Shown here: positions 3,532 through 49,883 of the stretch, piece after piece
How the letters are laid out: each line of letters opens with the position of its first letter
How positions within the stretch are numbered: the first letter of the stretch is position 1
DNA from: a virus
Taxonomy: Duplodnaviria; Heunggongvirae; Uroviricota; Caudoviricetes
IMG/VR virus record: IMGVR_UViG_2870495154_000004
Coordinates: 1 to 51,251 of that record
DNA length: 51,251 nt
Strand: one strand, 5' to 3'
The notes under the pieces: model-generated
Databases searched by the model: none
Told to the model about the DNA's origin: nothing
Seen by the model: only the letters and a program-made list of their open reading frames with translations
Position numbers and translations under genes: made by a program

Positions 3532-3594
3532 TAACTTATTGATTTAAATGGTGCCGATAATAGGAGTCGAACCTACGACCTTCGCATTACGAAT
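3532..3594. repeat. att core copy distal to int (63 bp; carries the 3' 46 nt of tRNA-Thr plus 17 bp)
   Basis: exact 63-bp direct repeat of 49791-49853; flanking sequence diverges on both sides. Confidence 0.85.
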
Positions 3595-5504: not shown

Positions 5505-5645
5505 TAGCGCTTTAGTCGCACGGCACGCCTGTGTGCCAGCGTGGGCCCATAGCCGCTTTAATCGCCGTGCAGAATGCAGTTTTCAGGTAACTTCAGAGAA
5601 ACAAGTGATCTCATTTCGTTGTATTTATTAGCTGCGGAGTCATTA

Positions 5646-35031: not shown

Positions 35032-35094
35032 GGATATTTATCAGGATTTATCGGTTTCTGCCCACGGACAGGTTTATCTGTTCCGGTCAGTGAC

Positions 35095-35445: not shown

Positions 35446-35449
35446 TGAA

Positions 35450-35665
35450 TTACTCTCCCCGTGCAGCCTTACGCTTGTCTTCTTTAATCTTGAAATAAAG
35501 ATTTGTCAGATACGTCAGCAGGCCAAACACCAGACTACCCAGCACACCTATTGCCGCCCACTGTGAGGGCGTGACTTTATCGAGCAACTGTAAAAACCAG
35601 TACCCGGCACTACCTGCTGAGGTGCCATAGGCGACACCCGTTGTTAACTTATCCATGGATTTCAT
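35450..35665 (-). CDS. S: pinholin (phage 21 S-like), dual-start MKSM motif
   Basis: [29 protein letters not shown]... closely resembles S21; two TM segments. Confidence 0.85.
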
Positions 35666-35735
35666 AACCCCACCTCGCAGACAAAGCGGGTGCTGTGTAA
35701 TGGAAATAAAAAGGCCACCTGACGTGGCCACCAAA

Positions 35736-36788
35736 TTATTTCCCCACCAGCTCGTTTATCTCTTTCACTGTCTGGTTAAACCGCTCTGACTCAAGCTCAA
35801 CACCTAAGGCCCGACGCCCCAGCGCCATTGCTGCTTTTATTGTGGAACCGGATCCCATAAAAAAATCAGCAACCAGATCACCAGGTCGACTACTGGCATT
35901 GATTATTTGCCTGAGCATATCCGCCGGTTTCTCACACGGATGTTTACCCGGGTAGAACTGAACGGGTTTATGCATCCAGACATCGGTATAAGGCACGGAG
36001 ACTGATACGGAGAAATAGCGCCGGAGAGATTTAAACTCATCCAGCAATTCAGAATATTTGCGATTCAGTGAATCATAAGATGCCACCAGCTGGTGGTGTG
36101 GTTGTTCCAGTTGTTGTTCCTGAAACTTCTCTGCCGCTATACGGGAAAACAGTGCCTGTAACTTCCGATAGTCAGCCTCATTCGGCAACTGCCACTGACT
36201 GGCACCAAACCAGTGGGAAACCATATTTTTCTTACCTGTGGCTTCGGCAATTTGTTTTGCCGTTATACCCAGTTCGGCACGAGCATCCCTGAAATACGAT
36301 ATCAGCGGTGCCATTATGTGCTGTTTGAGTTCCCTTTCTTTTGCCGCATAGCCGTCACTTTTGCCGCGATATGGCCCCTGGTAATGTTCAGCAAACAGAA
36401 CGCGCTCTGTGGCAGGAAAATATGCGCGCAGACTTTCTTTATTACATCCATTCCAACGTCCGGACGGCTTCGCCCAGATGATATGGTTAAGCACGTTGAA
36501 ACGTTCACGCATCATGATCTCAATATCAGATGCCAGACGATGCCCACAGAACAGGTAAAGGCTTCCGGCAGGTTTTAACACCCGCCAGAACTGGGCCAGA
36601 CAGTGGTCCAGCCACTTAAGGTAATCTTCGTCCCCTTTCCACTGATTGTCCCAACCGTTGGGTTTCACCTTGAAGTAAGGCGGATCGGTAACAATCAGGT
36701 CAATGGAATCATCAGGCAGGGACTGAATAAAATGCAGGCAATCAGCGTTGATTAAATCAACACTGTTTATTTTTACAGTATTTTTCAT
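35736..36788 (-). CDS. DNA methyltransferase (N6-adenine/N4-cytosine class, DPPY motif)
   Basis: 350 aa; LIVTDPPYF motif near N-terminus and FFMGSGST near C-terminus. Confidence 0.8.
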
Positions 36789-36938
36789 GGATCAGTAAGC
36801 GTAACTCTGGTAGGCTCACTCTGCTTTTGCGCTAAAGCAGTGGGCCGTGGTTCGCTTGTGACCAGTAAGCATGAGCGAATGGCTGGCAGGTGCTACCAAC
36901 ACCCACCAGCCGCCCATTTTCACAGCAGGAAACCGCCA

Positions 36939-37166
36939 TTACTGGCAGCGTCTGAATTTATTCCCATACCCGCCGTTATCCTTCGCCAGACCCGCCAGAA
37001 CTAACTGAGTCAGTATTAACTGGCACCGGGCTTCGCTTACTCCGGTAGTTCTCGTCATCATGCGTGGCGTTACCCACTTGTCAGCAGGTAGGAAATGAAG
37101 GACTACGGCGGCGGTTTCTGTCATATCTTGCTGTTTTAGCATGTCTTTTTCCCTTCTGGTTAACAT
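36939..37166 (-). CDS. FaeA-like small winged-helix regulator
   Basis: 75-aa ORF; AVVLHFL...WVTPRMMTRTTGVSEARCQLILTQLVLAGLA resembles FaeA-like HTH proteins. Confidence 0.4.
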   Translation of the reverse strand: MLTRREKDMLKQQDMTETAAVVLHFLPADKWVTPRMMTRTTGVSEARCQLILTQLVLAGLAKDNGGYGNKFRRCQ

Positions 37167-37264
37167 GACATACCAATAACTCTTGTCTAAAAAGCCAGCA
37201 AGATAAAAAGCCAGTATTCACGACCACCAGCGTGTTTACTGTACTGCACCAGGTTTACAGGTAC

Positions 37265-37289
37265 AAAAAAACCGCTCAACTGCGGTTTT
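37265..37289 (-). terminator. rho-independent terminator (minus-strand orientation)
   Basis: AACCGC-loop-GCGGTT hairpin followed by a T-run on the minus strand. Confidence 0.55.
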
Positions 37290-37355
37290 AAGGAAGGAGT
37301 CGAAGTAACCACTCTTAACATGATACAATTATTTTTGCGGACCGCGTAAGCGTTT

Positions 37356-37389
37356 ATATAGTGTCAACATGCCAAAGATGACACTATAT
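37356..37389. promoter_or_regulatory. palindromic operator-like element in a promoter-rich region upstream of the NYN gene
   Basis: 10-bp inverted arms ATATAGTGTC / GACACTATAT, 14-bp spacer; TTGACA hexamers at 37391 and 37433. Confidence 0.4.
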
Positions 37390-37542
37390 GTTGACAGCAG
37401 AAAAAATTTACATTTAAACAGTGCAAAATTTGTTGACAACGCAAATGTCAATAGTTAATTATTGCGTCACCAGCTCAGCACTGTTCGTAGATAATATTTA
37501 GGGTCTACTCAACGGTTCTGAGCTTTTTTTGTGAGTTTTTCA

Positions 37543-38406
37543 ATGAAGAAAACAGCAGTCTTGATTGACGGCGGCTACTTCATCCGTCGGATTGATTACT
37601 TTCTACGAAAACATTTCCCTGGGCATGAGTTAGACAGCCAACAACTTGTTAAAATAATCTGGCGAATTGTTAAATTTCATGTAGAGGTTCCACATGGTGC
37701 TCACGCTGACCGTGAACCACTTGAGCTTTACCGTATTTACTATTACGACTGCCCGCCGCTTGATAAACAGATTAAGTATCCTTTGCCTGATGGAGACAAC
37801 AAAACCCCATCAACTAAAAACTTCAAGACACATGCTCCGAATGTTTTACGAAACAAGCTTCATGAGGAGCTAAGGAAGAATCGTAAAACGGCACTTCGTA
37901 TGGGTATTCTTTCAAACGTCGGTAACTGGCAAATAAAAGAACATACTCTTAAGAAACTATTACGTAATGAAATTCAATGGTCTGAGTTAACTAACGACGA
38001 TTTCTACTACGAATATAAACAAAAAGCCGTCGATATTAAGCTTGGTATGGATATAACTATCCTTGCTCATGAGAAACTAGTTGATGTGATCGTCCTGATT
38101 GCTGGCGATGCTGATTTCGTTCCTGCCGCTAAACATGCCCGTATAAAGGGTGTGGATTTTATCCTCGATCCAATGAACCAACAAGTTCCTCCCTCACTGG
38201 CAGAGCACGTCGATGGAGTGCAATCGAGCAACATTGTTGTTGCAATTGCTGATATTTGCAGAATCGTCCCAACAGTAAAACCTGATTGGTGGGACGATTA
38301 TATTGACAGACGCAAAGAGAAAAAACTCAATCGTCAAAAGAAAACAAAATCATCTAAGAACGAGCCCAAGAAAAAAACACTTCAATCTGAAACATCCCCG
38401 GCTTAA
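37543..38406 (+). CDS. NYN-domain (PIN-like RNase fold) protein
   Basis: AVLIDGGYF ... DIKLGMDI ... LIAGDADFVPA acidic motifs; lysine-rich tail; AT-rich; opposite strand to flanking phage genes. Confidence 0.6.
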   Translation: MKKTAVLIDGGYFIRRIDYFLRKHFPGHELDSQQLVKIIWRIVKFHVEVPHGAHADREPLELYRIYYYDCPPLDKQIKYPLPDGDNKTPSTKNFKTHAPNVLRNKLHEELRKNRKTALRMGILSNVGNWQIKEHTLKKLLRNEIQWSELTNDDFYYEYKQKAVDIKLGMDITILAHEKLVDVIVLIAGDADFVPAAKHARIKGVDFILDPMNQQVPPSLAEHVDGVQSSNIVVAIADICRIVPTVKPDWWDDYIDRRKEKKLNRQKKTKSSKNEPKKKTLQSETSPA

Positions 38407-38413
38407 GCCGGGG
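38396..38413. terminator. perfect palindrome CCCCGGCTTAAGCCGGGG between convergent NYN and Q (likely bidirectional terminator)
   Basis: 7-bp GC stem, 4-nt loop containing the NYN stop codon; 5 bp from the Q stop. Confidence 0.5.
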
Positions 38414-38418
38414 TTTCA

Positions 38419-38784
38419 CTAATCCATTTCAAGTTTAACATCCAGAATTGAAAGGCATCCATCAATAAACCCCTCAGCCATCTGTATCTCAATGCGTATT
38501 AGTTTCTCATCCTTTCCACGCGCCTTTGCAATCTTACGCTTGGATATTCTGTATAAATAATGTGCCACAAGAAGCGAATGCTCATCAGGTCTTTTTTGCT
38601 TTAGACGTGCAAGACAACCTTCAATAATTAATGCATCACTATCTGAACAAGCCTGACGTGTTTTGCTTGTATAGGGAAGAAGCCCTTTAAACCCAGCAGC
38701 TATAGGAGAATAATCTACTCCTGAACTATCACTCGCCGCCCATGCTCCCCAACGATCCAGAACCATCTGAATATCACGCATCAC
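38419..38784 (-). CDS. Q: late antiterminator Q (phage 82 type)
   Basis: MRDIQMVLDRWGAWAA...IAAGFKGLL...EGCLARLK...LIRIEIQMAEGFIDGCLSILDVKLEMD matches Q82 family. Confidence 0.85.
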   Translation of the reverse strand: MMRDIQMVLDRWGAWAASDSSGVDYSPIAAGFKGLLPYTSKTRQACSDSDALIIEGCLARLKQKRPDEHSLLVAHYLYRISKRKIAKARGKDEKLIRIEIQMAEGFIDGCLSILDVKLEMD

Positions 38785-38799
38785 CTTTCTCCGAAAAAA

Positions 38800-39795
38800 T
38801 CAGGCCAGCACGCCAATTGCCAGCGCGCGATCGATAAAACGAAATATCAGCTCCAGCTGGGAGCCATACTTTTCTTCAAATGCCACGGTATCCGCATGCA
38901 GCTCGTCGTGATGCTTTCTGCACAAAGGCAACACAAAAAGGTCATGCGCTTTTGTTCCCATTCCACCCTGACCGTAACCTATCAGGTGGTGGGGATCATC
39001 AGCGGGCTTTCCACAACATGCACACGGCTGTGTCTTAACCCAGCGCGTGTACTTTTCATTAACCCAGCGGCGACGTTTTGGGCGTAACATAAAAGACTCC
39101 GGCGACTCCGGATCCACTTTCAGCGCCAGCACCTTTTTCGCCTTATCCTGGATGATGCTGGTGGCAGGAACCGAAGGCACAAGGTCACTTTCCCGGGTGA
39201 CAGACGGCACAACAGGCTTCGGTAATCTAAGTGCCTTACGGGCTGCACTTTCCGGTAAGGCATCCGCCAGGTCATTACGAATCAGCCACCAGCACAGTTC
39301 CGGCATTGTCACAACGTGACTGTCATCAAAACCGAGATCCCGACGCACAACAGACAACACCCAGCGGGCACAGTTATCCGTTGCCATTGATTCCAGCCGT
39401 TCCGTGAACTGATCGCGCAGCTGGTTATCGCAGTGCCAGCACAGACGGATTGCGCCCGGAGCGTGTCGCATTGTGGTCATGTTCTCGCTGTGCCAGTCGG
39501 AATGAGGCCACTGGCAGCCTTTTTCACGAAGTAACCAGCTTTCAAGACATTCCACGCCACCAGCACGACGGATCACTGCCTCATTGCGGAACACGGCCCG
39601 AACGGCAGGATCATCCGCCAGCGGTTGTGATGCCGCCGGAACGGCACCACTGGCGAAAGATGAATAACGTTCCGGCTCAGGCTCCAGCAGGACACGCCCC
39701 TGCATAAACAGGGGCATCAGCTCTGAACCTGGCCTGAACAATACGATCCCCATACGCGGGGCAATTTCAGGAGTCAGTAGTGCTCTCACGGTCAC
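38800..39795 (-). CDS. DUF968-family protein (YdfU-like) with C-terminal Cys/His HNH-like motif
   Basis: 331 aa; CACCGKPADDPHHL...CRKHHDELH; typical neighbour of Q. Confidence 0.6.
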   Translation of the reverse strand: MTVRALLTPEIAPRMGIVLFRPGSELMPLFMQGRVLLEPEPERYSSFASGAVPAASQPLADDPAVRAVFRNEAVIRRAGGVECLESWLLREKGCQWPHSDWHSENMTTMRHAPGAIRLCWHCDNQLRDQFTERLESMATDNCARWVLSVVRRDLGFDDSHVVTMPELCWWLIRNDLADALPESAARKALRLPKPVVPSVTRESDLVPSVPATSIIQDKAKKVLALKVDPESPESFMLRPKRRRWVNEKYTRWVKTQPCACCGKPADDPHHLIGYGQGGMGTKAHDLFVLPLCRKHHDELHADTVAFEEKYGSQLELIFRFIDRALAIGVLA

Positions 39796-39796
39796 C

Positions 39797-40594
39797 TCAA
39801 TGAACGGTATCGAGCAGCTTTAACAGCTCAGGGAATCGGGATTCGAAGAAATGCGGCTGCGTCTCGCGCGGATTTGCGGGACTGGTGATGTTCTTGCCGA
39901 ACATGCAGCCTTTCGCTGTCAGCGACCAGAATTTTTTGATGTTGTTAATCGCGGTACGGCTGTATCGTTCGCGCTGCTCGACGATCCCCAGCTTCGCCAT
40001 CTGGTGATATGCCTGATTAGCTGTCAGGCGGATACCATACTGTTTCAGCAGTGCACTCAGCGACAGCGTAGGGCGACTTGAGCCATCAGGCGCGTCAGCA
40101 GGAGCATCAATGGCATAGTGTGGTGCCAGATTCGGTAAGCCAACAGCCTCCTGGAGTTTCTGACAGGCCCCAAGCACAGATGAGTTAGACAGGTTTAACT
40201 CCCGGCGCATAAAGTCCAGCAGAATCACGCCAGCCTGCATCTTGTCAGCAGCCTGCCCGGATATTTTTTCCGGTGTGCTGGTTACCATATCGAAAGTACG
40301 GATCACCTTCAGATGGAATGACGGGCTGATCCACATTGCATAGGCATACACCAGTTCTTTGCAGACATACGTCCCCTGGTTATTTCCGCCACGACTAACG
40401 TTAACTGGCTCTATATTGACCGAGTTGCAAATCTGCAACTCGCTTATTAAACGTTCGGTTTGCTCATTGCGGAGCCAGAATGCAGGCTTATGCTTATCCT
40501 GAGAACCGGCAGCCCTGTGCAGATCGTTCAGGCTGTAACGCCCATAAGCATCACGACGAACTTCAATACCATCAATAACCATCAGATTATTCAT
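39797..40594 (-). CDS. KilA-N domain protein (antirepressor-like)
   Basis: N-terminal MVIDGIEVRRDAYGRYSLNDLHRAAG...KPAFWLRNEQT is KilA-N-like. Confidence 0.6.
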   Translation of the reverse strand: MNNLMVIDGIEVRRDAYGRYSLNDLHRAAGSQDKHKPAFWLRNEQTERLISELQICNSVNIEPVNVSRGGNNQGTYVCKELVYAYAMWISPSFHLKVIRTFDMVTSTPEKISGQAADKMQAGVILLDFMRRELNLSNSSVLGACQKLQEAVGLPNLAPHYAIDAPADAPDGSSRPTLSLSALLKQYGIRLTANQAYHQMAKLGIVEQRERYSRTAINNIKKFWSLTAKGCMFGKNITSPANPRETQPHFFESRFPELLKLLDTVH

Positions 40595-40613
40595 ACTTCG
40601 TTTCTCCTCTTAA

Positions 40614-41003
40614 TCAGGCGGCTGCACCCGCCGGTTTCTCATACTTACTGATAGTGATCTCGACCTTCCCTTCCGGGATAACCGGTCCCCACTCCACCAG
40701 CATTCTTTTCACCTGACTGTCGTCTTCCCACACCCCCGCGTGGGTCAGGGCGTCAAACAGCGCCTTGTTATAGTTGTCCAGATCGCGGATCCGGTTATCC
40801 GGAGGAAACAACACGATCTCCACTGAAGCAGGTGCCGACGTTGGTTTCGGCAGACGACGTAACTGCTCAACTATTGCTGCGCACGCCGCGCTCTGGAATT
40901 TTCGCCCCGCCGCGCTTATCAGACTCTTACCAGCAAACGCCCCTTTGTTGGGGTGTCGCCAGTACGTGTTCACGCTGGGCGGGAAAGGCAGGATCAGCTT
41001 CAT
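40614..41003 (-). CDS. rusA: Holliday junction resolvase RusA
   Basis: LPFPPSVNTYWRH...DLDNYNKALFDALTHAGVWEDDSQV matches RusA family. Confidence 0.85.
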   Translation of the reverse strand: MKLILPFPPSVNTYWRHPNKGAFAGKSLISAAGRKFQSAACAAIVEQLRRLPKPTSAPASVEIVLFPPDNRIRDLDNYNKALFDALTHAGVWEDDSQVKRMLVEWGPVIPEGKVEITISKYEKPAGAAA

Positions 41004-41326
41004 ACTTTCAGGCCCCTCTCATGTAACCAGTGGGCTGCACGCAGCCTGGCGTTTTCCTCACCGACAAGCAGTGAGCGGATAATCCCGACCGCCTCGCTGT
41101 CGTCGTCCTTCACCGCGGTATGAAGCGTGATGCCCCGGGCCACGCCACGCTTTATCGTGATGACGCCTTTTTTCTCCAGTGCGCGAAGATGCTCTACCGC
41201 TGCATTCACTGAACGGTATCCCAGCATGGTTGCCACCTCCTGATTGGTTGGCGGAAAGCCACGCTCTTTCTGATAAGAAATCAGCATATCCAGCACCTGC
41301 TGCTGGCATTGAGTTAACGTCGTCAT
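41000..41326 (-). CDS. LexA N-terminal DNA-binding-domain-like protein (no peptidase domain)
   Basis: LTQCQQQVLDMLISYQKERGFPPTNQEVATMLGYRSVNAAVEHLRALEKKGVI parallels the LexA winged-HTH; ORF ends about 108 aa; start overlaps upstream stop. Confidence 0.5.
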   Translation of the reverse strand: MTTLTQCQQQVLDMLISYQKERGFPPTNQEVATMLGYRSVNAAVEHLRALEKKGVITIKRGVARGITLHTAVKDDDSEAVGIIRSLLVGEENARLRAAHWLHERGLKV

Positions 41327-41820
41327 TACGCCCCCACGTAATTCCCTGACAGATACCACTCATCACTCGATACAGCGCGCTTGCTGCTTTTCCGTAAACA
41401 CTGCTCACGACGCGCCAGAAAATTGTTTCGTTCTGGCTGGGAATGGCTTTCACGGAATGCCGCCATCCACACCGTTGCAGCACGACGGTATAAGCCCCTG
41501 GACTCCAGTTCTTCAGCCTGGCGGGTCAGGCACAAAATCTCCCGCGGGTCGTTAGTGCCGACATAGAAATTGCGCACAGGTCTGGTTTCACGAACTGGTT
41601 GCGGTTCCGCCTCCTGCGCTCTCTCAGTCAGGCGCGGGAAATGTCTGCGTGTATCCCCTTCACAACGGTGAGCCACACGACCACTCTGACGTAACTTGCT
41701 TGCTGACTGCAGAACGCGCTGCCGTGAGTAACCTGCAAAAGCATCCGCAATGTCTCCGGAAGTACACCCCGGATGGGCTTCAATGTATTTCTGAACTTCA
41801 TTCAAAAGACTCATGATCAC
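41326..41820 (-). CDS. hypothetical protein, possible PerC-like regulator
   Basis: 164-aa ORF downstream of O-like gene; AEELESRGLYRRAATVWMAAF resembles PerC-type motifs (weak). Confidence 0.35.
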   Translation of the reverse strand: MIMSLLNEVQKYIEAHPGCTSGDIADAFAGYSRQRVLQSASKLRQSGRVAHRCEGDTRRHFPRLTERAQEAEPQPVRETRPVRNFYVGTNDPREILCLTRQAEELESRGLYRRAATVWMAAFRESHSQPERNNFLARREQCLRKSSKRAVSSDEWYLSGNYVGA

Positions 41821-42758
41821 CCCCTGAATCCTGCCGGGATCTGGCTGTAGTCCACGTTGTCGTAACTGGCTTTGAAGTACGGGTCTTCGCGTTTTTCGGT
41901 GTACGTGCTGACGGACGGCGATAAGCGCAGGGAAAGCTCATCCCATTTTTCCCGCAGCTTCGACGGGCTGAGCACGTTACGGCACCAGAACGGATCGCGG
42001 CTGACGCGGCTGTACATCTCGCAGATTTGTTTGTGAGTACGACCATCCTGCACACACATCAGGCGAATTTCGTTTGCCCAGGCTGTCCAGTTCGGTTCTT
42101 TGGGACGAACCACCTCGCCGTCACATTCGGCGGCCTGCTCGTACAGGGCGATGATTTTTTTCCAGAGCCACTGTGCGCAGGTCAAATCATCCTGCGTTCC
42201 CCACTGGCGCTTTTTAGGGCTGAATACAACCGCATTAGGATGGCGAGTTAAAAACTCCTGTTCAGCCGTCTGCGTGTCCGGTTGCGAAGCGTCCGGACGA
42301 GAAGTTTTTTTATCTGACGGATCATGTTTTGATTTTACTGACGGATCCCCGCCAGATTCTGACGGGTGAAAACCCGCTTTTTTGCCAGATTTCGACGCAT
42401 CAAATTTTGACGGGTCAGATTTTGATGCGTCAGATTTTGACGGGTCAGAATCTGACAATTGAGAAAATGCCGCTGCCTGAAGCTTCGCAACGTTAAGCTG
42501 ATAAACATTCGACGCATTGCGGTTACCCTGGCGACGCGCCTTACGCGTTAACCAGCCTTCTGCTTCCAGCCGTGCGATAGCCGTTCTGACGGTACTCATC
42601 CCCGCGCCAATCTGACGGGCAATGGTTTCAATTGATGGCCAGCACACACCTTCGTCATTACTGAAATCAGCCAGGCGGGCCATAATTGCCACGCTGGATA
42701 ATTTCATGCCTGACGCAGCGCAACCATCCCATACATAGCCGGTTAATTTAGTGCTCAT
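41817..42758 (-). CDS. replication initiation protein, lambda O-like N-terminal HTH, with internal iteron-encoded repeat
   Basis: N-terminus MSTKLTGYVWDGCAASGMKLSSVAIMARLADFSNDEGVCWPSIETIA is Phage_rep_O-like; internal SKSDASKSDPSKFDASKS repeat. Confidence 0.75.
   Translation of the reverse strand: MSTKLTGYVWDGCAASGMKLSSVAIMARLADFSNDEGVCWPSIETIARQIGAGMSTVRTAIARLEAEGWLTRKARRQGNRNASNVYQLNVAKLQAAAFSQLSDSDPSKSDASKSDPSKFDASKSGKKAGFHPSESGGDPSVKSKHDPSDKKTSRPDASQPDTQTAEQEFLTRHPNAVVFSPKKRQWGTQDDLTCAQWLWKKIIALYEQAAECDGEVVRPKEPNWTAWANEIRLMCVQDGRTHKQICEMYSRVSRDPFWCRNVLSPSKLREKWDELSLRLSPSVSTYTEKREDPYFKASYDNVDYSQIPAGFRG
42386..42457. repeat. replication origin iterons (five tandem ~15-bp repeats inside the O-like gene)
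   Basis: tandem CAGATTTTGACGGGT-like units; same arrangement as lambda ori. Confidence 0.6.
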
Positions 42759-42767
42759 GACCGACCT

Positions 42768-43106
42768 CTATTTCCCTGAATTTACGACGAAACTGTTCGA
42801 GCGGACTGAAGCATTCATGCTCATAGCCTTCGCGGAGGTAGATAACCCGTTGTGTTTCCGGCTCCCAACGAATGACTCTGACGGGTACTCCGTAGTGATC
42901 TTTGAACCAGCGGTTAACTTGTCGCAAAGGACTGTCTCCTTTTGCCGGTTAAAATCACCCACAGCCCACTCTGCAAAGCTGTGGGTTACAATTACCCTGC
43001 CACCTGGTACATTTACTGCATAGCAATACTCCACCTTCGCTTTTCCACCCGGTACAGGAAGCGCAATCAGTTGCGAGCGACGGTAGTGTGTTGTTAAACT
43101 GTTCAT
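42768..43106 (-). CDS. small hypothetical ORF between CII-like and O-like genes
   Basis: 112-aa ORF filling the gap; competing plus-strand ORF 42751-43023; no motif. Confidence 0.2.
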
Positions 43107-43699
43107 GCGTTAGTTTCTCCACAGTCACGACACGCCACGGCGCCCGGAGCTGCACACTCGCGGGCGTCACTACTTTCTGAAACGCAAAAGATTTTGTAGA
43201 CCAGAGCTGCATGCTCCTGCAGCTTCGAAATTGAGAGGTACAGCTCATCGTTAATTGCTGTCTTCTCATGCGGTTCCACTACACCGTCTTCAATTGCTGA
43301 ACGAATCTGTCTGGAATAACTGCCGATCTGTTCAATGACTTCCAGCAGACGCTGGTTAATATCGGCATTGTCCACATCCTCGACGTCAGGAAGAGACACA
43401 AAGATGCCATTTGCAGACTGCGCCACAGCGTCAGCAATGAAGTGAGTTCCACCAGCACGTTGCAAAATCATTGCCCATCCCAGCGGGAAAATCTGATCGC
43501 CATCGGCACGAAGGCGGTTAAATAATGCGTTCTCTGTTACATCCAGCCAGTCAGCTGCTTCAGCGTAACCACCCGGCAACTTTGCGATAGTTTTTCTGAC
43601 AGCTTTCACGTACCACTCAGGCTGTTTTTCTACTTTCCAGTGATGCTTACCCACGGTTAGCCTCATCGTTCTGTGGTTTCTGTTAATCGATTTATCCAT
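43103..43699 (-). CDS. CII-like regulatory protein (CP76 phage-regulator family)
   Basis: ATG overlaps cro stop (AATGGATAA coupling); [22 protein letters not shown]...FIADAVAQ resembles CP76-type CII; alternative starts 43711 and 43768. Confidence 0.5.
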
Positions 43700-43892: not shown

Positions 43893-43904
43893 ACGCCCTC
43901 CAAA

Positions 43905-43967
43905 CTAAGTTTTGTTAGATGCTAATTACAAATCTATCTTTGGTCAATAAAAACTAAGATTACTTAG
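43905..43967. promoter_or_regulatory. OR-like region with two CTAAG-N4-(C/G)TTAG operators between cro and cI
   Basis: CTAAGTTTTGTTAG (43905-43918) and CTAAGATTACTTAG (43954-43967) in the 97-bp divergent intergenic region. Confidence 0.55.
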
Positions 43968-43989: not shown

Positions 43990-44616
43990 ATGGAAACGGT
44001 TGGTCAGCGTATAAAAGCTCTGAGAAGAGTTACCAGAACGTCCCAGAAAGAATTGGGTAAATTTTGTGGAGTAAGCGACGTTGCTGTGGGGTACTGGGAG
44101 AAAGACATCAATACCCCTGGCGGGGAGGCACTTTCGAAATTAGCGAAGTTCTTCAATACGTCAATAGATTACATTCTTTACGGTGCTGAGTTTGAAGGCA
44201 AACTCGTCACAAACATGCGCAGAGTTCCTGTAATATCGTGGGTTCAGGCTGGGCAGTTTACTGAGTGCAGGGCAGCAGAAGTGTTTAGTGAAGTGGACAA
44301 GTGGGTAGATACATCATTAAAGGTTGGTGATAACTCATTTGCATTAGAGGTTAAAGGTGACTCCATGACTAACCCTAATGGCCTCCCAACAATACCAGAA
44401 GGCGCAACAGTGATTGTAGATCCAGATGCAGAACCTCGTCATGGAAAAATAGTCATCGCTCGACTTGATGGAACAAACGAAGCTACAGTAAAAAAATTAG
44501 TCATCGATGGCCCTCAAAAGTTTTTAGTGCCATTAAATCCTCGGTATCCCAACATCCCTATCAATGGTAATTGCCTTATCATTGGTGTAGTCAAAGGAGT
44601 TCAATACGAACTCTAA
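43990..44616 (+). CDS. cI: CI-type prophage repressor (HTH + S24 LexA-like peptidase)
   Basis: 208 aa; N-terminal HTH, C-terminal S24-like domain with GDSM serine motif. Confidence 0.85.
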   Translation: METVGQRIKALRRVTRTSQKELGKFCGVSDVAVGYWEKDINTPGGEALSKLAKFFNTSIDYILYGAEFEGKLVTNMRRVPVISWVQAGQFTECRAAEVFSEVDKWVDTSLKVGDNSFALEVKGDSMTNPNGLPTIPEGATVIVDPDAEPRHGKIVIARLDGTNEATVKKLVIDGPQKFLVPLNPRYPNIPINGNCLIIGVVKGVQYEL

Positions 44617-44669
44617 GACCTCTCTTCTCTAACTAAGGCACCGAACCAAGAAAAGTTTGGTGTTTTCTC

Positions 44670-44698
44670 TTGTCATGATAACTAAGTTAAGTTAGATT
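44670..44698 (+). promoter_or_regulatory. candidate pL/OL: TTGTCA -35, 17-bp spacer containing a third CTAAG-type operator, TAGATT -10
   Basis: operator CTAAGTTAAGTTAG at 44682-44695, same family as the OR sites, 66 bp after the cI stop. Confidence 0.4.
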
Positions 44699-44781
44699 TT
44701 ATATCAAAGATAACGAACAGGCAGGACGCCCACGAAGTAGCCGCCTGGGGCATATGAAGTCCAGGATGATTCGTTAGCAAC

Positions 44782-44804
44782 AAAAAAGCGCCCTACAGGA
44801 CGCT
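44782..44804 (-). terminator. rho-independent terminator for the minus-strand gene 44844-45335
   Basis: minus-strand hairpin AGCGTCC-TGTA-GGGCGCT followed by TTTTTT, 40 bp after the stop. Confidence 0.5.
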
Positions 44805-44843
44805 TAGCTCTTTAACAATCTGGATATCCACAACAGTAGTAAT

Positions 44844-45335
44844 CTACAGATTGCCGTTAAGTTTTCTGGACAACTCCTCAATGGATGGAGGCGATACGTA
44901 ATCCGGATTTTTATTCATCAGAAACTTATTTTCACAGTGGAGGCACCTGCTTTTATGAAAAAGCTCATCTTCGCTAACCGGGAATGGTTGAAGTATCGAT
45001 ACTATCTTTTGTCCAAAACATTTTGGGCAAAGATGCATGGTTATGCTGCCACCGTTCACGATTACCTCCTTCGAGTATACAAAAGTACCCGACTCAAGTT
45101 GGTTAAGGATATAGCCTTCCGTCTGAGCCTCAAAGTTTTCGAATTCTGCAATTTTAGCTTTGAGAGAAGCATTTATTTCTTGATAAGAGCCCACCAGTTC
45201 AACGAGAGACACGCATTCGCGCTGAATAGACGCAAGCTTTGAGTTCAGCTCACCAATAGCCGCATTTACTTCAGCTTGAGTTTTTGCCTCGTTCATTAGT
45301 TTTGCAATCTGGGCTGTTTCACGAATAGCCGTCAT
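44844..45335 (-). CDS. hypothetical coiled-coil protein with C-terminal CxxC...CxxC zinc-ribbon
   Basis: about 163 aa from MTAIRETAQIAKL; CPKCFGQK ... CLHCENKF; opposite strand to cI and the early-left genes. Confidence 0.45.
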   Translation of the reverse strand: MTAIRETAQIAKLMNEAKTQAEVNAAIGELNSKLASIQRECVSLVELVGSYQEINASLKAKIAEFENFEAQTEGYILNQLESGTFVYSKEVIVNGGSITMHLCPKCFGQKIVSILQPFPVSEDELFHKSRCLHCENKFLMNKNPDYVSPPSIEELSRKLNGNL

Positions 45336-45373
45336 TGCTGCCGTTAATTCAGCGATCACATTGAATACTCTTA

Positions 45374-45419
45374 TTGTTGTTGGGGATATCCAGATTAACC
45401 GAATCCTTGTTGTTGGGGA
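45374..45419. repeat. two 13-bp direct repeats TTGTTGTTGGGGA spaced 33 bp apart, upstream of the Zn-ribbon gene
   Basis: exact copies at 45374-45386 and 45407-45419. Confidence 0.5.
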
Positions 45420-45692
45420 ATAACCAGGTCCACCTCGCCTGATGTGGCTAAAAGCAGGCACATAACAGCTAAGTATTTTCAACCAGAGAGAATCCTTAGC
45501 GTTGTGGTGAATGCGGCTCAGCGCACGCGGGTTAAGGTTGAGGCTGACAGTCGACCTTCTGTGGATACCCACCCGCCTGGTGTGCAACCTTCGCCAGGCA
45601 CCGGGAGGCACCCGGCACCACAACTTTATGCTGTGTGTAGTCCTGGCGGTATCAGCTTGTACCCTTGCTTCCGGCTGGTACCGTCCTTTTTA

Positions 45693-45779
45693 CAAAACAG
45701 AGAAGAGTATCACCGGACGACGGGCTCATAACCCAATCCATCCGGGCGGCTGCCACCGCAGGTGTTCTTCTCTGTTTTG
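45693..45779 (+). ncRNA. structured element: 14-bp perfect inverted repeat enclosing two GC-rich hairpins (candidate cis-acting RNA)
   Basis: CAAAACAGAGAAGA (45693-45706) pairs with TCTTCTCTGTTTTG (45766-45779); internal hairpins CCGGAC...CCGGG and GCGG-CTGCCA-CCGC. Confidence 0.3.
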
Positions 45780-45828
45780 TGGAGAAACCAACCGACCTTG
45801 CAGGGTCGATATGATGGGGAGCAGCAAA

Positions 45829-46191
45829 ATGGCTAGCGAACGCAGTACTGATGTGCAGGCATTTATCGGGGAGCTGGACGGCGGCGTATTTGAAACCAAA
45901 ATCGGCGCAGTTCTCAGTGAAGTCGCTTCCGGTGTGATGAACACGAAAACCAAAGGTAAGGTCTCGCTCAACCTGGAAATCGAACCGTTTGATGAGAACC
46001 GTGTAAAAATCAAACACAAACTCTCATATGTTCGCCCGACTAACCGCGGGAAAATTTCCGAAGAAGACACCACCGAAACGCCGATGTATGTCAATCGCGG
46101 TGGTCGCCTGACTATTCTGCAGGAAGACCAGGGACAATTACTGACTCTTGCCGGTGAACCTGACGGAAAACTCCGCGCAGCAGGTCGTTAA
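45829..46191 (+). CDS. hypothetical early protein (YfdP-like)
   Basis: GGAG 7 nt upstream of ATG 45829; about 120 aa; first gene of the plus-strand early-left cluster. Confidence 0.5.
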   Translation: MASERSTDVQAFIGELDGGVFETKIGAVLSEVASGVMNTKTKGKVSLNLEIEPFDENRVKIKHKLSYVRPTNRGKISEEDTTETPMYVNRGGRLTILQEDQGQLLTLAGEPDGKLRAAGR

Positions 46192-46256
46192 TATCGTTTT
46201 TAATAAACTGATTATTTATCTCATCACTGAATATCTTTATATAGTGAGGACTTATT

Positions 46257-47081
46257 ATGTCTCAGAACTTAGACGCAACCGCAATTAATCAAATCCATGC
46301 CCTTATTTCTGCTCAGGGTGTTAATGAAATTATCAGTAAGATTGGTGCCGATGCTGTGGCATTGCCTGAGAATTTCCGCATTCATGATCTGGAAAAATTT
46401 AATTTAAATCGCTTCCGTTTCCGTGGTGCGCTTTCCACTGCCAGCATCGATGACTTTACCCGTTATTCTAAAGATCTTGCAGATGAAGGCACCCGCTGCT
46501 TTATCGATGCTGATAATATGCGAGCCGTCAGTGTGCTTAACCTGGGTACTATTGATGAACCAGGTCACGCAGATAACACCGCCACTCTCAAACTGAAAAA
46601 GACAGCACCGTTCTCTGCCCTGTTGTCTGTTAACGGCGAGCGTAACTCCCAGAAGTCACTGGCAGAATGGATTGAAGACTGGGCCGACTACCTTGTGGGC
46701 TTTGATGCTAATGGTGACGCCATTCAGGCAACAAAAGCGGCTGCGGCGGTCCGTAAAATCACGATTGAAGCAAACCAGACCGCTGATTTTGAAGACAATG
46801 ACTTCAGCGGCAAACGCTCTCTGATGGAGTCTGTCGAAGCGAAAACCAAAGACATTATGCCAGTAGCATTTGAGTTTAAATGCGTTCCGTTTGAAGGCCT
46901 GAAAGAACGTCCGTTTAAATTACGCCTCAGCATTATCACTGGTGATCGCCCTGTACTGGTTCTGCGCATTATTCAGCTGGAAGCAGTGCAGGAAGAAATG
47001 GCTAACGAATTTCGTGATCTGCTTGTTGAAAAATTCAAAGACAGCAAAGTAGAAACCTTTATTGGTACTTTCACCGCCTGA
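46257..47081 (+). CDS. DUF2303-type protein (YfdQ-like)
   Basis: 274-aa ORF with strong SD; size and position match YfdQ-type prophage proteins. Confidence 0.5.
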
Positions 47082-47208
47082 TTTCATTACTGCAAATGCC
47101 CCTGCGGGGGCATTTATGGAAACGTAATTAACTCAATAATCGCCTGATGGCGAGGGTTTTCTTTAACCAAAATTCAGCGCGGTGCAGCGCATATACGTGG
47201 AGAACAAA

Positions 47209-47745
47209 ATGTCATTTATTAAAACTTTTTCCGGGAAGCATTTTTATTATGACAGGATAAATAAAGACGACATCGATATTAACGATATCGCGGTTTCCCT
47301 TTCAAATATCTGTCGCTTTGCCGGTCATCTTTCGCACTTCTACAGCGTCGCCCAACATGCGGTTCTTTGCAGCCAGCTGGTGCCGCAGGAATTTGCTTTT
47401 GAAGCGTTAATGCATGATGCAACAGAAGCGTATTGCCAGGACATTCCCGCACCACTGAAACGCCTTCTTCCTGACTATAAACAAATGGAAGAAAAAATAG
47501 ACGCCGTAATCCGTGAGAAATACGGGTTACCCCCAGTTATGAGTACGCCCGTGAAATATGCCGATCTCATCATGCTGGCAACCGAACGCCGCGATCTCGG
47601 GCTTGATGATGGCTCTTTCTGGCCTGTACTGGAAGGTATCCCGGCAACAGAGATGTTCAACGTGATTCCACTGGCACCGGGCCATGCCTACGGGATGTTT
47701 ATGGAACGCTTTAACGAGTTATCGGAGTTACGCAAATGCGCATGA
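47209..47745 (+). CDS. HD-domain phosphohydrolase (YfdR-like 5'-deoxynucleotidase family)
   Basis: H...HD metal-binding signature (VAQHAVL ... LMHDATEAY); GGAGA SD before ATG 47209. Confidence 0.65.
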   Translation: MSFIKTFSGKHFYYDRINKDDIDINDIAVSLSNICRFAGHLSHFYSVAQHAVLCSQLVPQEFAFEALMHDATEAYCQDIPAPLKRLLPDYKQMEEKIDAVIREKYGLPPVMSTPVKYADLIMLATERRDLGLDDGSFWPVLEGIPATEMFNVIPLAPGHAYGMFMERFNELSELRKCA

Positions 47746-48098
47746 ATGTTTTCGAAATGGAAGGGTTTCTTCGTGGGAGATGTGTACCGCGAGATCTGAA
47801 AGTAAATGAAACAGATGCTGAATACCTGGTGCGTAAATTCGATGCGCTTGAAGCTAAATGTGCAGCACAGGAAAACAAAGTAATACCAGTGTCAACTGAA
47901 CTGCCACCAGCAAATGAAAGTGTTTTGTTATTCGATGCTAACGGAGAAGGCTGGCTAATTGGCTGGCGTTCTCTCTGGTACACCTGGGGACAAAAAGAAA
48001 CCGGAGAATGGCAGTGGACATTTCAGGTCGGGGACCTTGAAAACGTCAATATCACTCACTGGGCAGTAATGCCAAAAGCACCGGAGGCTGGAGCATAA
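47736..48098 (+). CDS. DUF551-like small protein (YfdS-like)
   Basis: 120-aa Trp-rich ORF overlapping the upstream stop. Confidence 0.45.
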   Translation: MRMNVFEMEGFLRGRCVPRDLKVNETDAEYLVRKFDALEAKCAAQENKVIPVSTELPPANESVLLFDANGEGWLIGWRSLWYTWGQKETGEWQWTFQVGDLENVNITHWAVMPKAPEAGA

Positions 48099-48403
48099 TG
48101 ACCACTTTTACCGACAAAGAACTGATTAAAGAAATTAAAGAGCGTATCAGCAGCCTTGACGTGCGAGACGATATTGAGCGCTGTGCTTATGAAATCGCAC
48201 TCCTATCTCTGGAAGTAGAACCAGATGAACGCGAAGCTTATGAATTATTCATGGAAAAGCGTTTCGGTGACTTAGTAGATCGTCGGAGAGCAAAAAACGG
48301 CGATAACGAATACATGGCATGGGATATGACTCTCGGTTGGATCGTCTGGCAGCAACGAGCTGGTATCCATTTTTCAACAATGTCACAGCAAGAGGTGAAA
48401 TAA
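48098..48403 (+). CDS. hypothetical early protein
   Basis: 101-aa acidic ORF; stop overlaps xis start (TAATG). Confidence 0.45.
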   Translation: MTTFTDKELIKEIKERISSLDVRDDIERCAYEIALLSLEVEPDEREAYELFMEKRFGDLVDRRRAKNGDNEYMAWDMTLGWIVWQQRAGIHFSTMSQQEVK

Positions 48404-48753
48404 TGGAGCCATACAGCCTCACACTCGATGAGGCCTGTCATTTTCTCAAGATATCCAGACCGACTGCCATTAACTGGATACGCACAGGGCGTCTTCAGGC
48501 AACACGCAAAGATCCCACTAAGAATAAATCTCCTTACCTCACAACACGACAAGCCTGCATTGCGGCTCTTCAGTCTCCGCTGCATACTGTCCAGGTGAGC
48601 GCGGGTGATGGCATAACAGAGGAAAGAAAATGTCACTCTTCCGCAGAGGTGAAATATGGTACGCCAGTTTCACATTGCCGAACGGTAAAAGATTTAAACA
48701 GTCTCTTGGAACAAAGGACAAAAGGCAGGCGACAGAACTCCATGACAAGCTAA
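48403..48753 (+). CDS. xis: excisionase (P22 Xis-like HTH)
   Basis: [33 protein letters not shown] directly upstream of and overlapping int. Confidence 0.7.
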
Positions 48754-49793
48754 AGGCTGAAGCATGGCGGGTCAGCAAACTTGGTGAAATACCTGATATA
48801 ACGTTCGAGGAAGCGTGTATCAGGTGGCTTGAAGAGAAAGCACATAAAAAATCACTGGACGATGACAAAAGCCGGATCGGATTCTGGCTTCAACATTTCG
48901 CAGGAATGCAACTAAGAGACATTACTGAATCAAAAATTTATTCAGCAATGCAGAAAATGACGAACCGGCGTCATGAGGAAAACTGGAAACTCAGGACAGA
49001 AGCATGCAGAAAAAAAGGGAAACCTGTTCCAGAATACACGCCAAAACCAGCGTCCGTTGCAACGAAGGCTACGCATCTTTCATTTATAAAAGCCCTACTA
49101 AGAGCCGCAGAGCGTGAATGGAAAATGCTGGATAAGGCACCAATTATTAAAGTGCCTCAACCAAAGAATAAACGGATCCGCTGGCTGGAGCCCCATGAAG
49201 CACAAAGGCTGATTGATGAATGTCCGGAGCCATTAAAGTCTGTTGTTGAATTTGCACTGGCAACAGGCTTAAGACGCTCGAACATCATCAACCTTGAATG
49301 GCAACAAATAGACATGCAGCGCCGGGTGGCATGGATAAACCCGGAAGAGAGTAAATCAAACCGCGCAATTGGCGTTGCGCTGAATGATACTGCATGTCGC
49401 GTTTTGAAAAAACAAATCGGGAATCATCACCGTTGGGTATTTGTGTACAAGGAAAGCTGTACCAAACCAGACGGAACGAAAGCGCCAACAGTAAGGAAGA
49501 TGCGGTATGACGCAAACACAGCCTGGAAAGCGGCGCTGAGACGGGCTGGTATTGATGATTTCAGATTTCACGACTTGAGACACACCTGGGCAAGTTGGCT
49601 GGTTCAAGCCGGAGTCCCGTTGTCAGTGTTACAGGAAATGGGAGGCTGGGAGTCTATCGAAATGGTTCGTCGATATGCTCACCTTGCACCTAATCACCTT
49701 ACCGAACACGCACGGCAAATAGACTCGATCCTGAACCCATCGGTCCCAAATTCGTCCCAGTCAAAAAATAAGGAAGGTACTAATGATGTGTAA
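48630..49793 (+). CDS. int: tyrosine integrase, P22 Int-like, thrW-specific
   Basis: 387 aa; arm-binding N-terminus and catalytic HDLRHTWAS...VRRYAH; stop codon is the first 3 nt of the att core. Confidence 0.9.
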
Positions 49794-49853
49794 CTTATTG
49801 ATTTAAATGGTGCCGATAATAGGAGTCGAACCTACGACCTTCGCATTACGAAT
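49791..49853. repeat. att core copy adjacent to int, overlapping the 3' 46 nt of thrW
   Basis: exact 63-bp direct repeat of 3532-3594. Confidence 0.85.
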
Positions 49854-49883
49854 GCGCTGCTCTACCAACTGAGCTATATCGGC
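49808..49883 (-). tRNA. thrW: tRNA-Thr (anticodon CGU)
   Basis: 76-nt cloverleaf ending CCA; anticodon loop TTCGTAA; next to proA. Confidence 0.9.

Follow-up and report, generated by a model that had tools for sequence, protein, structure and literature searches.

The yfd block and its prophage

The window, that is, the whole stretch of 51,251 nucleotides analysed, contains a 46-kb lambdoid prophage (about 46.3 kb between its att repeats), which is inserted at the tRNA-Thr gene thrW and adjoins proA. The tRNA-Thr(CGU) gene lies on the minus strand at 49808-49883. Its 3' part is covered by attL, a 63-bp repeat at 49791-49853 to which no strand is assigned, and the partner repeat, attR, lies at 3532-3594. 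The virion genes of the prophage are lambda-like, no gtr genes follow int, and elsewhere it carries conflict-type cargo, a PDC-S15 FRG-domain protein.

The interval 45829-48403, between a cI-type repressor gene and xis/int, is filled exactly by five open reading frames on the plus strand, with the start of yfdP at 45829 and the stop of yfdT at 48403. The first-pass annotation had placed YfdPQRST-like early-left genes here, and it had called a DUF2303 protein, a YfdR-type HD hydrolase and a DUF551 protein among them. The coordinates proved exact, the five proteins are 95-99% identical to those of K-12, and HMM searches with Pfam and PHROGs confirmed the three family calls. The family calls were right, but the word "like" was too cautious; the genes are the yfdPQRST alleles themselves, and their DNA is 96.5% identical to K-12 and 98.6% to phage SfV.

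yfdP (45829-46191, plus strand) encodes a protein of 120 aa that matches PHROG 204 (1e-49) and is identical to K-12 YfdP at 118 of 120 residues. The Pfam family PF27127 'YfdP' is precomputed for 98%-identical relatives of this protein. The AF2 model (pLDDT 67) predicts a helix, a three-stranded sheet and a conserved flexible tail, and Foldseek gave no significant fold match for it in the PDB (best E = 0.06). yfdQ (46257-47081, plus strand) encodes 274 aa, of which 272 are identical in K-12. Residues 7-272 match DUF2303 (PF10065) with 309.7 bits against a cut-off of 26.6. A homologue has been solved as PDB 9o7m, 'YfdQ Protein', with 36 chains (E = 1e-44); our literature search found no accompanying paper. 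Foldseek comparison of the AF2 model (pLDDT 75) with the PDB and BFVD returned only other DUF2303 proteins, with a best PDB E value of 0.08.

yfdR (47209-47745, plus strand) encodes an HD-domain phosphohydrolase of 178 aa, annotated as a 5'-deoxynucleotidase, and a GTG at 47182 is a possible alternative start. The protein is the orthologue of the characterised K-12 YfdR, being identical at 174 of 178 residues and having the same gene neighbourhood. It matches PHROG 318, 'deoxyribonucleoside 5' monophosphate phosphatase', at 1e-111. In alignment with Atu1052 the HD-family metal-binding motif is intact (H50...H69-D70...D119, with E73 and D78 after the HD pair). The E. coli 5'-deoxynucleotidase YfbR (PDB 2paq) and Atu1052 (PDB 2gz4) share the HD fold and the H...HD...D metal site with YfdR, which is clearly closer to Atu1052, its closest solved relative (3e-14, against E = 0.88 for YfbR in phmmer). 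Membership of YfdR in the YfbR family was considered and rejected, with 20.4 bits against 122 for NCBIfam NF003009 and 25.0 against 25.9 for Pfam PF12917. Judged by these scores, YfdR is related in fold to YfbR but is placed outside the YfbR family.

The yfdS-type gene (47736-48098, plus strand; PHROG 583) encodes 120 aa, of which 115 are identical in the K-12 protein and all 120 in SfV orf29. DUF551 (PF04448) is reached marginally in its C-terminal half (residues 50-117, 22.2 against 22.0 bits). yfdT (48098-48403, plus strand; PHROG 660) encodes 101 aa, with 96 identical in K-12 YfdT. The block is followed on the same strand by the excisionase gene at 48403-48753 (Pfam HTH_17, 2e-8; PHROG 2907 'excisionase', 1e-50), whose start overlaps the yfdT stop, and by the tyrosine integrase gene at 48630-49793 (Pfam Phage_integrase, 6e-48; also called by PHROG and by PGAP, which puts the start at 48675). 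Since yfdR and yfdS overlap by 10 nt, yfdS and yfdT by 1 nt, and yfdT and xis by 1 nt, yfdR through xis-int would form one translationally coupled unit.

Between the window and K-12 the five genes show 55 synonymous and 18 non-synonymous codon differences. This pattern points to purifying selection on the genes, and chance open reading frames are ruled out. E. coli CREC-532 carries DNA 100% identical to the block, and in its PGAP annotation the five genes appear as yfdP, yfdQ, yfdR (5'-deoxynucleotidase), 'phage protein' and yfdT. Of 5426 complete E. coli genomes, 3297 (61%) gave a match to the block DNA. yfdP was linked to yfdQ in all 80 loci sampled, as tightly as anything in the block, and yfdR accompanied both in 77 of the 80. 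The order cI-yfdP-yfdQ also occurs in Xenorhabdus, Klebsiella and Salmonella prophages.

Repressor, predicted promoter and leader RNA upstream of yfdP

The repressor gene (43990-44616, plus strand) lies upstream of the block and encodes a helix-turn-helix domain and an S24 autopeptidase (Pfam HTH_3, 1e-9; Peptidase_S24, 2e-27; PHROG 4). Operator-like repeats, ACTAAG-N5-CTTAG, lie between cI and cro at 43902-43918 and 43951-43967. A third copy at 44679-44695 is overlapped by a promoter-like site, TTGTCA-17-TAGATT (44670-44698, plus strand), which is predicted from sequence to be the pL-equivalent. The first-pass annotation had assigned the yfd genes to a pL-equivalent operon. The operator copy and the promoter-like site after cI agree with that assignment, but a cargo gene and a terminator intervene before yfdP.

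Just past pL lies a 65-nt segment (44712-44776, plus strand) that, by alignment, is common to SfV and SfIV despite their different immunity regions; its predicted fold is unexceptional (z = -1.4). The cargo gene (44844-45359, minus strand; 171 aa, PHROG 1244) is flanked by 26-nt inverted repeats at 44817-44842 and 45371-45396, and it has its own terminator at 44786-44805. The slot that it fills between pL and yfdP is variable, with different genes in SfV and SfIV.

A structured non-coding leader follows at 45471-45693 on the plus strand. The full length of the Rfam STnc100 model RF02076 (206 positions) aligned with it at E = 2e-7, and the score of 40.5 bits was below the cut-off of 47. The leader is best described as a diverged relative of STnc100. 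Like the RF02076 STnc100 and PasD prophage RNAs, it has the core CACCGGGAGGCACCCGGCACCA and a terminal terminator hairpin, here 13 bp with a U-run (about 45645-45693), which resembles an intrinsic terminator. In most elements with the STnc100 core, the genes that follow are nanS-p-type esterase or holin genes of late operons, whereas this leader precedes early-left genes. The idea that it was copied from the phage's own late-operon leader was rejected, as the interval from Q to the lysis genes in the window gave no STnc100-like match.

A second long hairpin (45688-45784, plus strand; -44.8 kcal/mol), followed by UUUUGU, lies directly 5' of the yfdP ribosome-binding site and contains a perfect 15-nt inverted repeat (45692-45706 and 45766-45780). 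The leader is about 85-90% identical to that of phage ST64B, whereas the coding DNA of yfdP, yfdQ and yfdR is only 66-69% identical. The terminator stem has another sequence in ST64B with the pairing kept, and the second hairpin shows one compensatory change from G-C to A-U. A structured leader of roughly 320 nt, bearing a terminator and a sub-threshold STnc100 match, is thus conserved above the level of the genes behind it. A small hairpin with a T-run (47140-47153, plus strand) lies in the 127-nt spacer between yfdQ and yfdR, and a second, weak STnc100-like match surrounds it (47073-47252, 22.7 bits, E = 0.09).

Small open reading frames in 44617-45828 were also considered as real genes and rejected. 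None had an informative PHROG match, and PGAP treats 45504-45814 as a frameshifted pseudogene; this stretch is better explained by structured RNA than by genes.

On its way from pL to yfdP, transcription would run across the cargo gene, which faces the other way, and meet one or more clear intrinsic terminators within the conserved leader RNA. Neither the open reading frames in 44617-45828 nor YfdP had a PHROG or Pfam match to an N-family protein. An HK022-type put RNA as a substitute for N was not supported either, as a covariance model of putL and putR found no match in the 65-nt segment past pL. By eye, this segment shares with putL and putR the short motifs ACGAAC and CAGGAUGA at similar spacing, but the local alignment score fell inside the shuffled range. 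In the window the model reached no score above 12 bits, and its weak matches lay outside the early leaders of the window, SfV, SfIV and ST64B. It was built from two sequences, HK022 putL and putR, which scored 95 and 85 bits as controls, so that distant put types could escape it.

Recombination genes and Chi sites

The early regions were searched for a Rec module with Pfam, PHROGs and PGAP, and the YfdQ and YfdP models were submitted to fold searches. No homologue of exo/bet (Red), RecET, Erf, Gam/Abc2 or N was found by Pfam, PHROGs, NCBIfam, PGAP annotation or the fold searches, and the first-pass claim that exo/bet, recET, erf, gam and N are lacking thus holds. A recombinase, Gam or N hidden in YfdQ or YfdP was rejected on the Foldseek results in the PDB and BFVD, which gave only DUF2303 relatives and no PDB match below E = 0.06. 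The prophage has only a RusA resolvase and an HNH/DUF968 protein, both in the nin region, and no gene for an annealing protein, a recombination exonuclease or an anti-RecBCD function.

On the late-gene sense strand (the minus strand), nine Chi sites (5'-GCTGGTGG-3') are clustered in 34606-43456, at 34606, 35744, 36083, 36903, 37224, 39286, 39557, 40694 and 43449. Two further sites on the late-sense strand lie at 8335 and at 47904, the latter inside yfdS. In total, eleven Chi sites are on the late-sense strand and two on the opposite strand. In the cos-proximal right arm 0.54 sites were expected against the nine observed, and none of 300 second-order Markov simulations reached nine. The 22.7-kb late region contains no Chi site. 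Chi sites so strongly enriched and so consistently oriented suggest that the phage depends on host RecBCD.

Lambdoid phages that have no Rec module, and that carry yfdP/Q/R genes and Chi sites as compensation, were reported as a class in 2025 (PMC12315714). The same work lists yfdP/Q/R-bearing phages such as LLS and ST64B as being without Rec modules and rich in Chi (PMC12315714). Like the LLS functional type, the window prophage has no annealing protein, exonuclease, RecBCD inhibitor or N. It also has yfdP/Q/R in the early-left region, an O-like initiator without P or a helicase, and active-strand Chi sites clustered near the right end. A difference is that it carries RusA and HNH/DUF968 in the nin region, which in LLS reportedly contains no gene related to recombination (PMC12315714). 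As far as its gene content and Chi sites tell, the window prophage fits the Rec-less, Chi-rich LLS class, and its growth would depend on RecBCD.

Comparison with CPS-53 and the SfV group

The K-12 element CPS-53 (KpLE1) has the same five genes with the same order and overlaps, with 96.5% DNA identity and 95-99% protein identity to the window. CPS-53 has lost the immunity region, pL and the leader, yfdP lies directly against what remains of yfdO, and the excisionase is TorI at argW, whereas the window block belongs to a complete thrW prophage with its native upstream region. The window prophage is the intact-phage counterpart of the CPS-53 remnant.

The closest phages are the Shigella flexneri phages SfV (orf32-orf28) and SfIV (gp34-gp30). 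Between the leader and the end of int their DNA is 98.6-98.7% identical to that of the window, and the proteins are 99-100% identical. They also have the same xis, int and thrW attachment. The repressor, the operators and the cargo between pL and yfdP differ from those of the window, where gtr is absent after int and the virion genes are lambda-like.

Possible function of the block

In K-12, multicopy yfdQ and yfdR together with either yfdS or yfdT suppress over-initiation mutants and inhibit initiation at oriC in the wild type, and yfdP is dispensable for this effect (PMC4776307). Purified YfdR binds domains I-II of DnaA in a Phe46-dependent manner and competes moderately with DiaA and DnaB (PMC4776307). 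The authors pointed out the SfV homologues and an analogy to lambda P (PMC4776307). DnaA binding and the block of initiation on overexpression were thus demonstrated elsewhere, with proteins 95-99% identical to those of the window, and they may also be the role of the block during phage growth.

We propose that yfdP-yfdQ-yfdR-yfdS-yfdT is an accessory early-left block of a thrW prophage of the SfV/ST64B/LLS type that acts on host replication, while the Rec role is left to RecBCD-RecA through Chi; we give this proposal about an even chance. Cleavage of the repressor would start transcription from the pL-equivalent (44670-44698). The transcript would have to get past the terminator-bearing leader RNA before the yfd block and then xis-int, and the Yfd proteins would then target host DNA replication. 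YfdR, an HD-fold protein with an intact metal site, would have only weak 5'-dNMP phosphatase activity, a low affinity being reported for the K-12 protein. It would bind domain I of DnaA at the Phe46 surface, which is used by DiaA and DnaB. Acting with YfdQ and with YfdS or YfdT, it would lower initiation at oriC, and the phage replicon would be favored. The missing Red/RecET/Erf/Gam module would not be replaced by the yfd genes; instead the phage would rely on host RecBCD-RecA, drawn in by the many Chi sites that lie in the right orientation close to its right cos end. Counting against the proposal is the terminator between pL and yfdP, for which no antiterminator match was found. The tight linkage of yfdP to yfdQ (80 of 80 loci) counts against it as well. 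In addition, the replication phenotype was seen on overexpression only, and its authors allowed for an artefact; deletion of yfdQRST in K-12 left both initiation and hydroxyurea resistance unchanged (PMC4776307).

It is possible, if unlikely, that YfdR is mainly a 5'-deoxynucleotidase that reshapes the early pools of dNMPs and nucleosides, with YfdP, YfdQ, YfdS and YfdT as unrelated passengers. Its intact metal-binding motif and the labels given by PHROG 318 and PGAP speak for this. HD homologues of the YfdR family also occur across 333 phage records, among them phiCbK-like, Tsamsa-like and ACP17 phages with very different genomes and hosts, and virulent and jumbo phages of unrelated hosts are included. 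This spread fits a general enzyme of nucleotide metabolism better than a DnaA-specific binder. However, YfdR scores short of the YfbR families, and it accompanies yfdP and yfdQ in 77 of the 80 loci. YfdQ and either YfdS or YfdT are needed for its only known phenotype. According to PMC4776307, which cites Zimmerman 2008, K-12 YfdR has a much lower affinity for nucleotides than YfbR, and its role is described there as elusive.

We think it rather improbable that the block is kept for the stress tolerance of the lysogen and not for phage growth. Deletion of yfdQ or of yfdS in K-12 is reported to cause H2O2 sensitivity, and multicopy yfdQRST to raise hydroxyurea resistance (PMC4776307). The block is also intact in the decayed CPS-53 remnant and very common, and the ratio of synonymous to non-synonymous changes indicates selection. 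On the other hand, the reported phenotypes are weak, and the gene order is kept in the active phages SfV, SfIV and ST64B. The block stands behind a repressor-controlled pL and a terminator, in an operon that ends in xis-int, which is a layout for lytic growth or induction.

A bolder form of the replication proposal is that YfdP/Q/R(S/T) are the missing replication-takeover device of an O-only, N-less, Rec-less lineage. A large YfdQ assembly would join YfdR in seizing the surface of DnaA at which DnaB docks, silence oriC and hand helicase loading to the phage origin, and the unusually conserved STnc100-like leader would gate the block in place of N. We regard this as an improbable extension.

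The first-pass annotation had suggested a possible anti-defence or nucleotide-pool role, and our results lend it no support; the functional data point elsewhere, to DnaA binding and inhibition of oriC, with a reported low nucleotide affinity of YfdR (PMC4776307). Very doubtful is an anti-defence module in which the HD hydrolase would break down signalling nucleotides or act against defences that deplete nucleotides, with YfdQ possibly a sponge-like oligomer. HD enzymes are able to cleave many nucleotide species. The block is early in the phage programme, the 36 chains of the solved YfdQ homologue may reflect a large oligomer, and the PDC-S15 FRG-domain protein is conflict-type cargo in the same prophage. 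However, PADLOC gave no match for the five Yfd proteins or the neighbouring cargo gene, our literature search found no paper tying Yfd proteins to defence or counter-defence, and no experimental hint points that way. The block also occurs in 61% of complete E. coli genomes, and one of its copies lies in the defective CPS-53 remnant.

The view that YfdP and YfdQ replace Red/Erf/Gam, as an annealing protein that has escaped recognition or as a modulator of RecBCD, is already largely refuted, and we give it next to no credence: the two genes stand at the map position of a Rec module, K-12 yfdQ mutants are reported to be weakly MMS- and H2O2-sensitive (PMC4776307) and unrelated phages have DUF2303 genes in their 'replication and repair' regions, but the AF2 models of YfdQ and YfdP resemble no annealing protein, exonuclease or Gam fold (best PDB E 0.08 and 0.06), Burkholderia phage JC1 has DUF2303 beside RecT and a YqaJ exonuclease, phage ArgO145 has the yfd cluster plus a complete Rec module, and the oriented Chi enrichment points to host RecBCD.

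Conclusion

The gene block (PMC4776307) and the Rec-less phage class (PMC12315714) were already published, and the present finding is real but ordinary. That is, a block present in most E. coli genomes has been re-identified in a phage class known from 2025, and as found it matters little. Its modest value is that of a clean, intact example with the native promoter, the leader, the five genes and xis-int, which the truncated K-12 copy does not offer as such. The intact native block is therefore suited to asking whether YfdQRST shuts down host replication during phage growth. For the same reason it is suited to the study of early-left expression and replication in lambdoid phages that are N-less, P-less and Rec-less.

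Gene content and identity of the block

The interval 45829-48403, which lies between the cI-type repressor gene and xis/int of a lambdoid prophage, consists of five plus-strand genes; it begins with the start codon of the first and ends with the stop codon of the last. The product of yfdP (120 aa) matched PHROG 204 and gave zero matches in the local Pfam copy; its homologues are assigned to a newer Pfam family, PF27127 'YfdP'. The product of yfdQ (274 aa) matched DUF2303 over its full length (309.7 bits). That of yfdR, taken to start at the ATG at 47209 (178 aa), matched PHROG 318, 'deoxyribonucleoside 5' monophosphate phosphatase', at 1e-111, and the HD-superfamily residues H50, H69-D70, and D119 were all kept. 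The fourth gene, at the yfdS position, encodes 120 aa with a marginal match to DUF551, and yfdT encodes 101 aa matching PHROG 660. From yfdR on, successive genes overlap as far as the excisionase start (47736-47745, 48098, and 48403), and these genes therefore form one unit with xis and int.

The block DNA was 100% identical to that of E. coli CREC-532, in whose PGAP annotation the five appear as yfdP, yfdQ, yfdR (5'-deoxynucleotidase), 'phage protein', and yfdT. It was 98.6-98.7% identical to orf32-orf28 of the Shigella phages SfV and SfIV and 96.5% identical to K-12 strains, and it was matched in 3297 of 5426 complete E. coli genomes. The protein identities with K-12, from YfdP to YfdT, were 118/120, 272/274, 174/178, 115/120, and 96/101, and the codon differences over the five genes were 55 synonymous and 18 non-synonymous. 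Judged from these comparisons, the block is the yfdPQRST genes themselves, and they are under purifying selection. In a set of 80 IMG/VR loci that share this YfdQ, YfdP was present in all 80 and YfdR in 77, and S and T varied. More distantly related prophages (in Xenorhabdus and Klebsiella, and ST64B in Salmonella) keep the order cI-yfdP-yfdQ at the operon head.

Setting of the block in the prophage

The prophage occupies 46.3 kb of the window and has a copy of a 63-bp att repeat at each end (3532-3594 and 49791-49853); the second copy overlaps tRNA-Thr(CGU), which adjoins proA. The gene of the S24-type repressor (cI; 43990-44616) lies upstream of the block on the same strand, with cro divergent. 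Two copies of the operator-like repeat ACTAAG-N5-CTTAG are found between cI and cro, and a third (44679-44695) overlaps a promoter-like site, TTGTCA-17-TAGATT. This third copy together with the promoter-like site is a credible candidate for pL/oL, and the label 'early-left operon' given in the first-pass annotation is thus a fair description.

The replication module is an O-like initiator alone (41817-42758, minus strand), without a P-type loader or helicase, and the same layout is found in ST64B. Downstream of the O-like gene are genes for a PerC-like activator (called yfdN in K-12), a LexA-family protein, and RusA; the succession of O-like and PerC-like genes also occurs in the K-12 prophage remnant CPS-53 and in a Klebsiella prophage. 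At the attR end, an FRG-domain protein (4134-5504, plus strand) matched the PADLOC candidate defence family PDC-S15 (8e-99). Downstream of it are a 374-aa protein with no assigned function (5574-6698) and, at 7175-7990, a gene with a weak match to RiboL-PSP HEPN (25.9 bits, where the cut-off is 28.4). A NYN-domain protein, a predicted RNase (37531-38406, plus strand), is encoded directly beside the Q antiterminator gene on the opposite strand and looks like cargo in the late-promoter region.

Recombination functions and Chi sites

In the early regions, including the early-left one, searches of Pfam, PHROGs, NCBIfam, and the PGAP annotation found no annealing protein (Red-beta/RecT, Erf, Rad52-type, or Sak4) and no lambda Exo, RecE, Gam, Abc2, or N. 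Recombination-related genes were limited to two in the nin region, which encode the RusA resolvase and an HNH/DUF968 protein. Disguised functions were tested with structure models of YfdQ (pLDDT 75) and YfdP (pLDDT 67), neither of which matched any PDB fold significantly; the BFVD matches of the YfdQ model were other DUF2303 proteins only, some from actinophages. In Burkholderia phage JC1, DUF2303 occurs alongside RecT and a YqaJ exonuclease. One phage has the yfd cluster in addition to a full Rec module, which makes a cryptic recombinase in the cluster unlikely (PMC12315714).

The first-pass annotation had described YfdPQRST-like genes here, among them a DUF2303 protein, a YfdR-type HD hydrolase, and a DUF551-like protein, with no recombination or N genes, and had proposed HMM confirmation. 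The Pfam and PHROG profiles that we ran bear out this gene content, and the profile, annotation, and fold searches agree with the absences.

A 2025 survey of 325 lambdoid phages defined an 'LLS functional type', which is without a Rec module or RecBCD inhibitor and has many active-strand Chi sites clustered towards the right end (PMC12315714). The early-left operons of this type contain yfdP, yfdQ, and yfdR homologues; no N homologue is found, and some members have an O-like initiator only (PMC12315714). In the prophage, eleven Chi octamers (the host recombination signal) lie on the late-gene sense strand and two on the other. Nine of the sense-strand sites fall between the lysis genes and cro (34606-43449) against 0.54 expected; 0 of 300 Markov simulations produced as many as nine, and the 22.7-kb virion-gene region has zero. 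The prophage shares with the LLS type the lack of a Rec module and the oriented clustering of Chi at the right end, and with some of its members O-only replication. It is a typical member of this class, and both the class and the yfd block have been described before.

Possible function of the block

The sole direct functional evidence concerns the K-12 proteins (PMC4776307). Multicopy yfdQ and yfdR together with either yfdS or yfdT inhibit initiation at oriC; K-12 YfdR binds DnaA domains I-II via a surface around Phe46, in moderate competition with DiaA and DnaB; yfdP is dispensable for the effect, and deletion of yfdQRST gave no phenotype (PMC4776307). Citing the SfV homologues, the authors proposed a lambda-P-like host shut-off in phage growth (PMC4776307). 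We consider this the best-supported mechanism, with moderate confidence because the evidence comes from overexpression.

The main rival is that YfdR is a plain nucleotide-pool enzyme, as its intact HD site and the occurrence of its family in 333 phage records, virulent and jumbo phages among them, would suggest. However, the nucleotide affinity of K-12 YfdR is reported to be much below that of YfbR (PMC4776307, citing Zimmerman 2008); YfdR also scores below the cut-offs of the YfbR family, and its nearest solved relative is Atu1052. As for the anti-defence role suggested in the first-pass annotation, none of the block proteins matched in PADLOC and our literature search found no paper tying them to defence or counter-defence. 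The reading given in that annotation holds for gene content and finds no support for function.

A YfdQ-family homologue (of 46257-47081) has been solved with 36 chains (PDB 9o7m), for which we found no associated paper; its assembly state could bear on YfdQ function. A preprint reports that YfdQ production triggers plaque formation by a co-resident phage.

From pL to yfdP

The route from pL to the block is not straightforward: pL is followed by a 65-nt segment, a variable slot, and a non-coding leader of about 430 nt. The 65-nt segment (44712-44776, plus strand), right after pL, is conserved in SfV and SfIV despite different repressors and operators. It has ACGAAC and CAGGAUGA in common with the HK022 antitermination RNAs putL and putR, at similar spacing. 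However, a covariance model of HK022 putL/putR matched neither this segment nor anything else in these early leaders. No N gene was found.

The slot holds an opposite-strand gene (44844-45359, minus strand) for a 171-aa protein of PHROG 1244, with a predicted coiled coil and a C-terminal CxxC...CxxC. The gene has its own terminator and is bracketed by 26-nt inverted repeats that are 85% complementary (44817-45396). It looks like an exchangeable cargo cassette, because the slot holds other genes in SfV and SfIV.

The leader, nearly identical in SfV and SfIV, contains a non-coding RNA (45471-45784, plus strand), apparently a diverged member of the STnc100 family (RF02076); the Rfam match was full-length and sub-threshold (40.5 against 47 bits). 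PGAP annotates part of the leader as a frameshifted pseudogene. The STnc100-like part ends in a 13-bp hairpin with a U-run (about 45645-45693, plus strand), a predicted intrinsic terminator, after which comes another long hairpin (45688-45784, plus strand). The leader is about 85-90% identical to that of ST64B, whereas the coding DNA of yfdP, yfdQ, and yfdR reaches 66-69% identity; compensatory changes preserve the pairing in the stems of both hairpins.

In ST64B (locus L088, 4653-4841) and cdtI (locus L089, 4848-5036), C4 antisense RNA and isrK matches above the Rfam cut-offs lie inside antirepressor-type early-right genes; Rfam found neither RNA in the window.

The 22-nt core of the leader, CACCGGGAGGCACCCGGCACCA, is common in lambdoid phages and was found in at least 128 elements (IMG/VR loci L091-L210). 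Ten of these precede yfdP and five precede yfdR, and most lie in late operons, 300-500 nt upstream of genes for a 654-aa nanS-p-like esterase or a holin. The same RNA module thus appears to be reused in early-left and late operons. Of the features described here, this conserved leader RNA alone may merit closer study.
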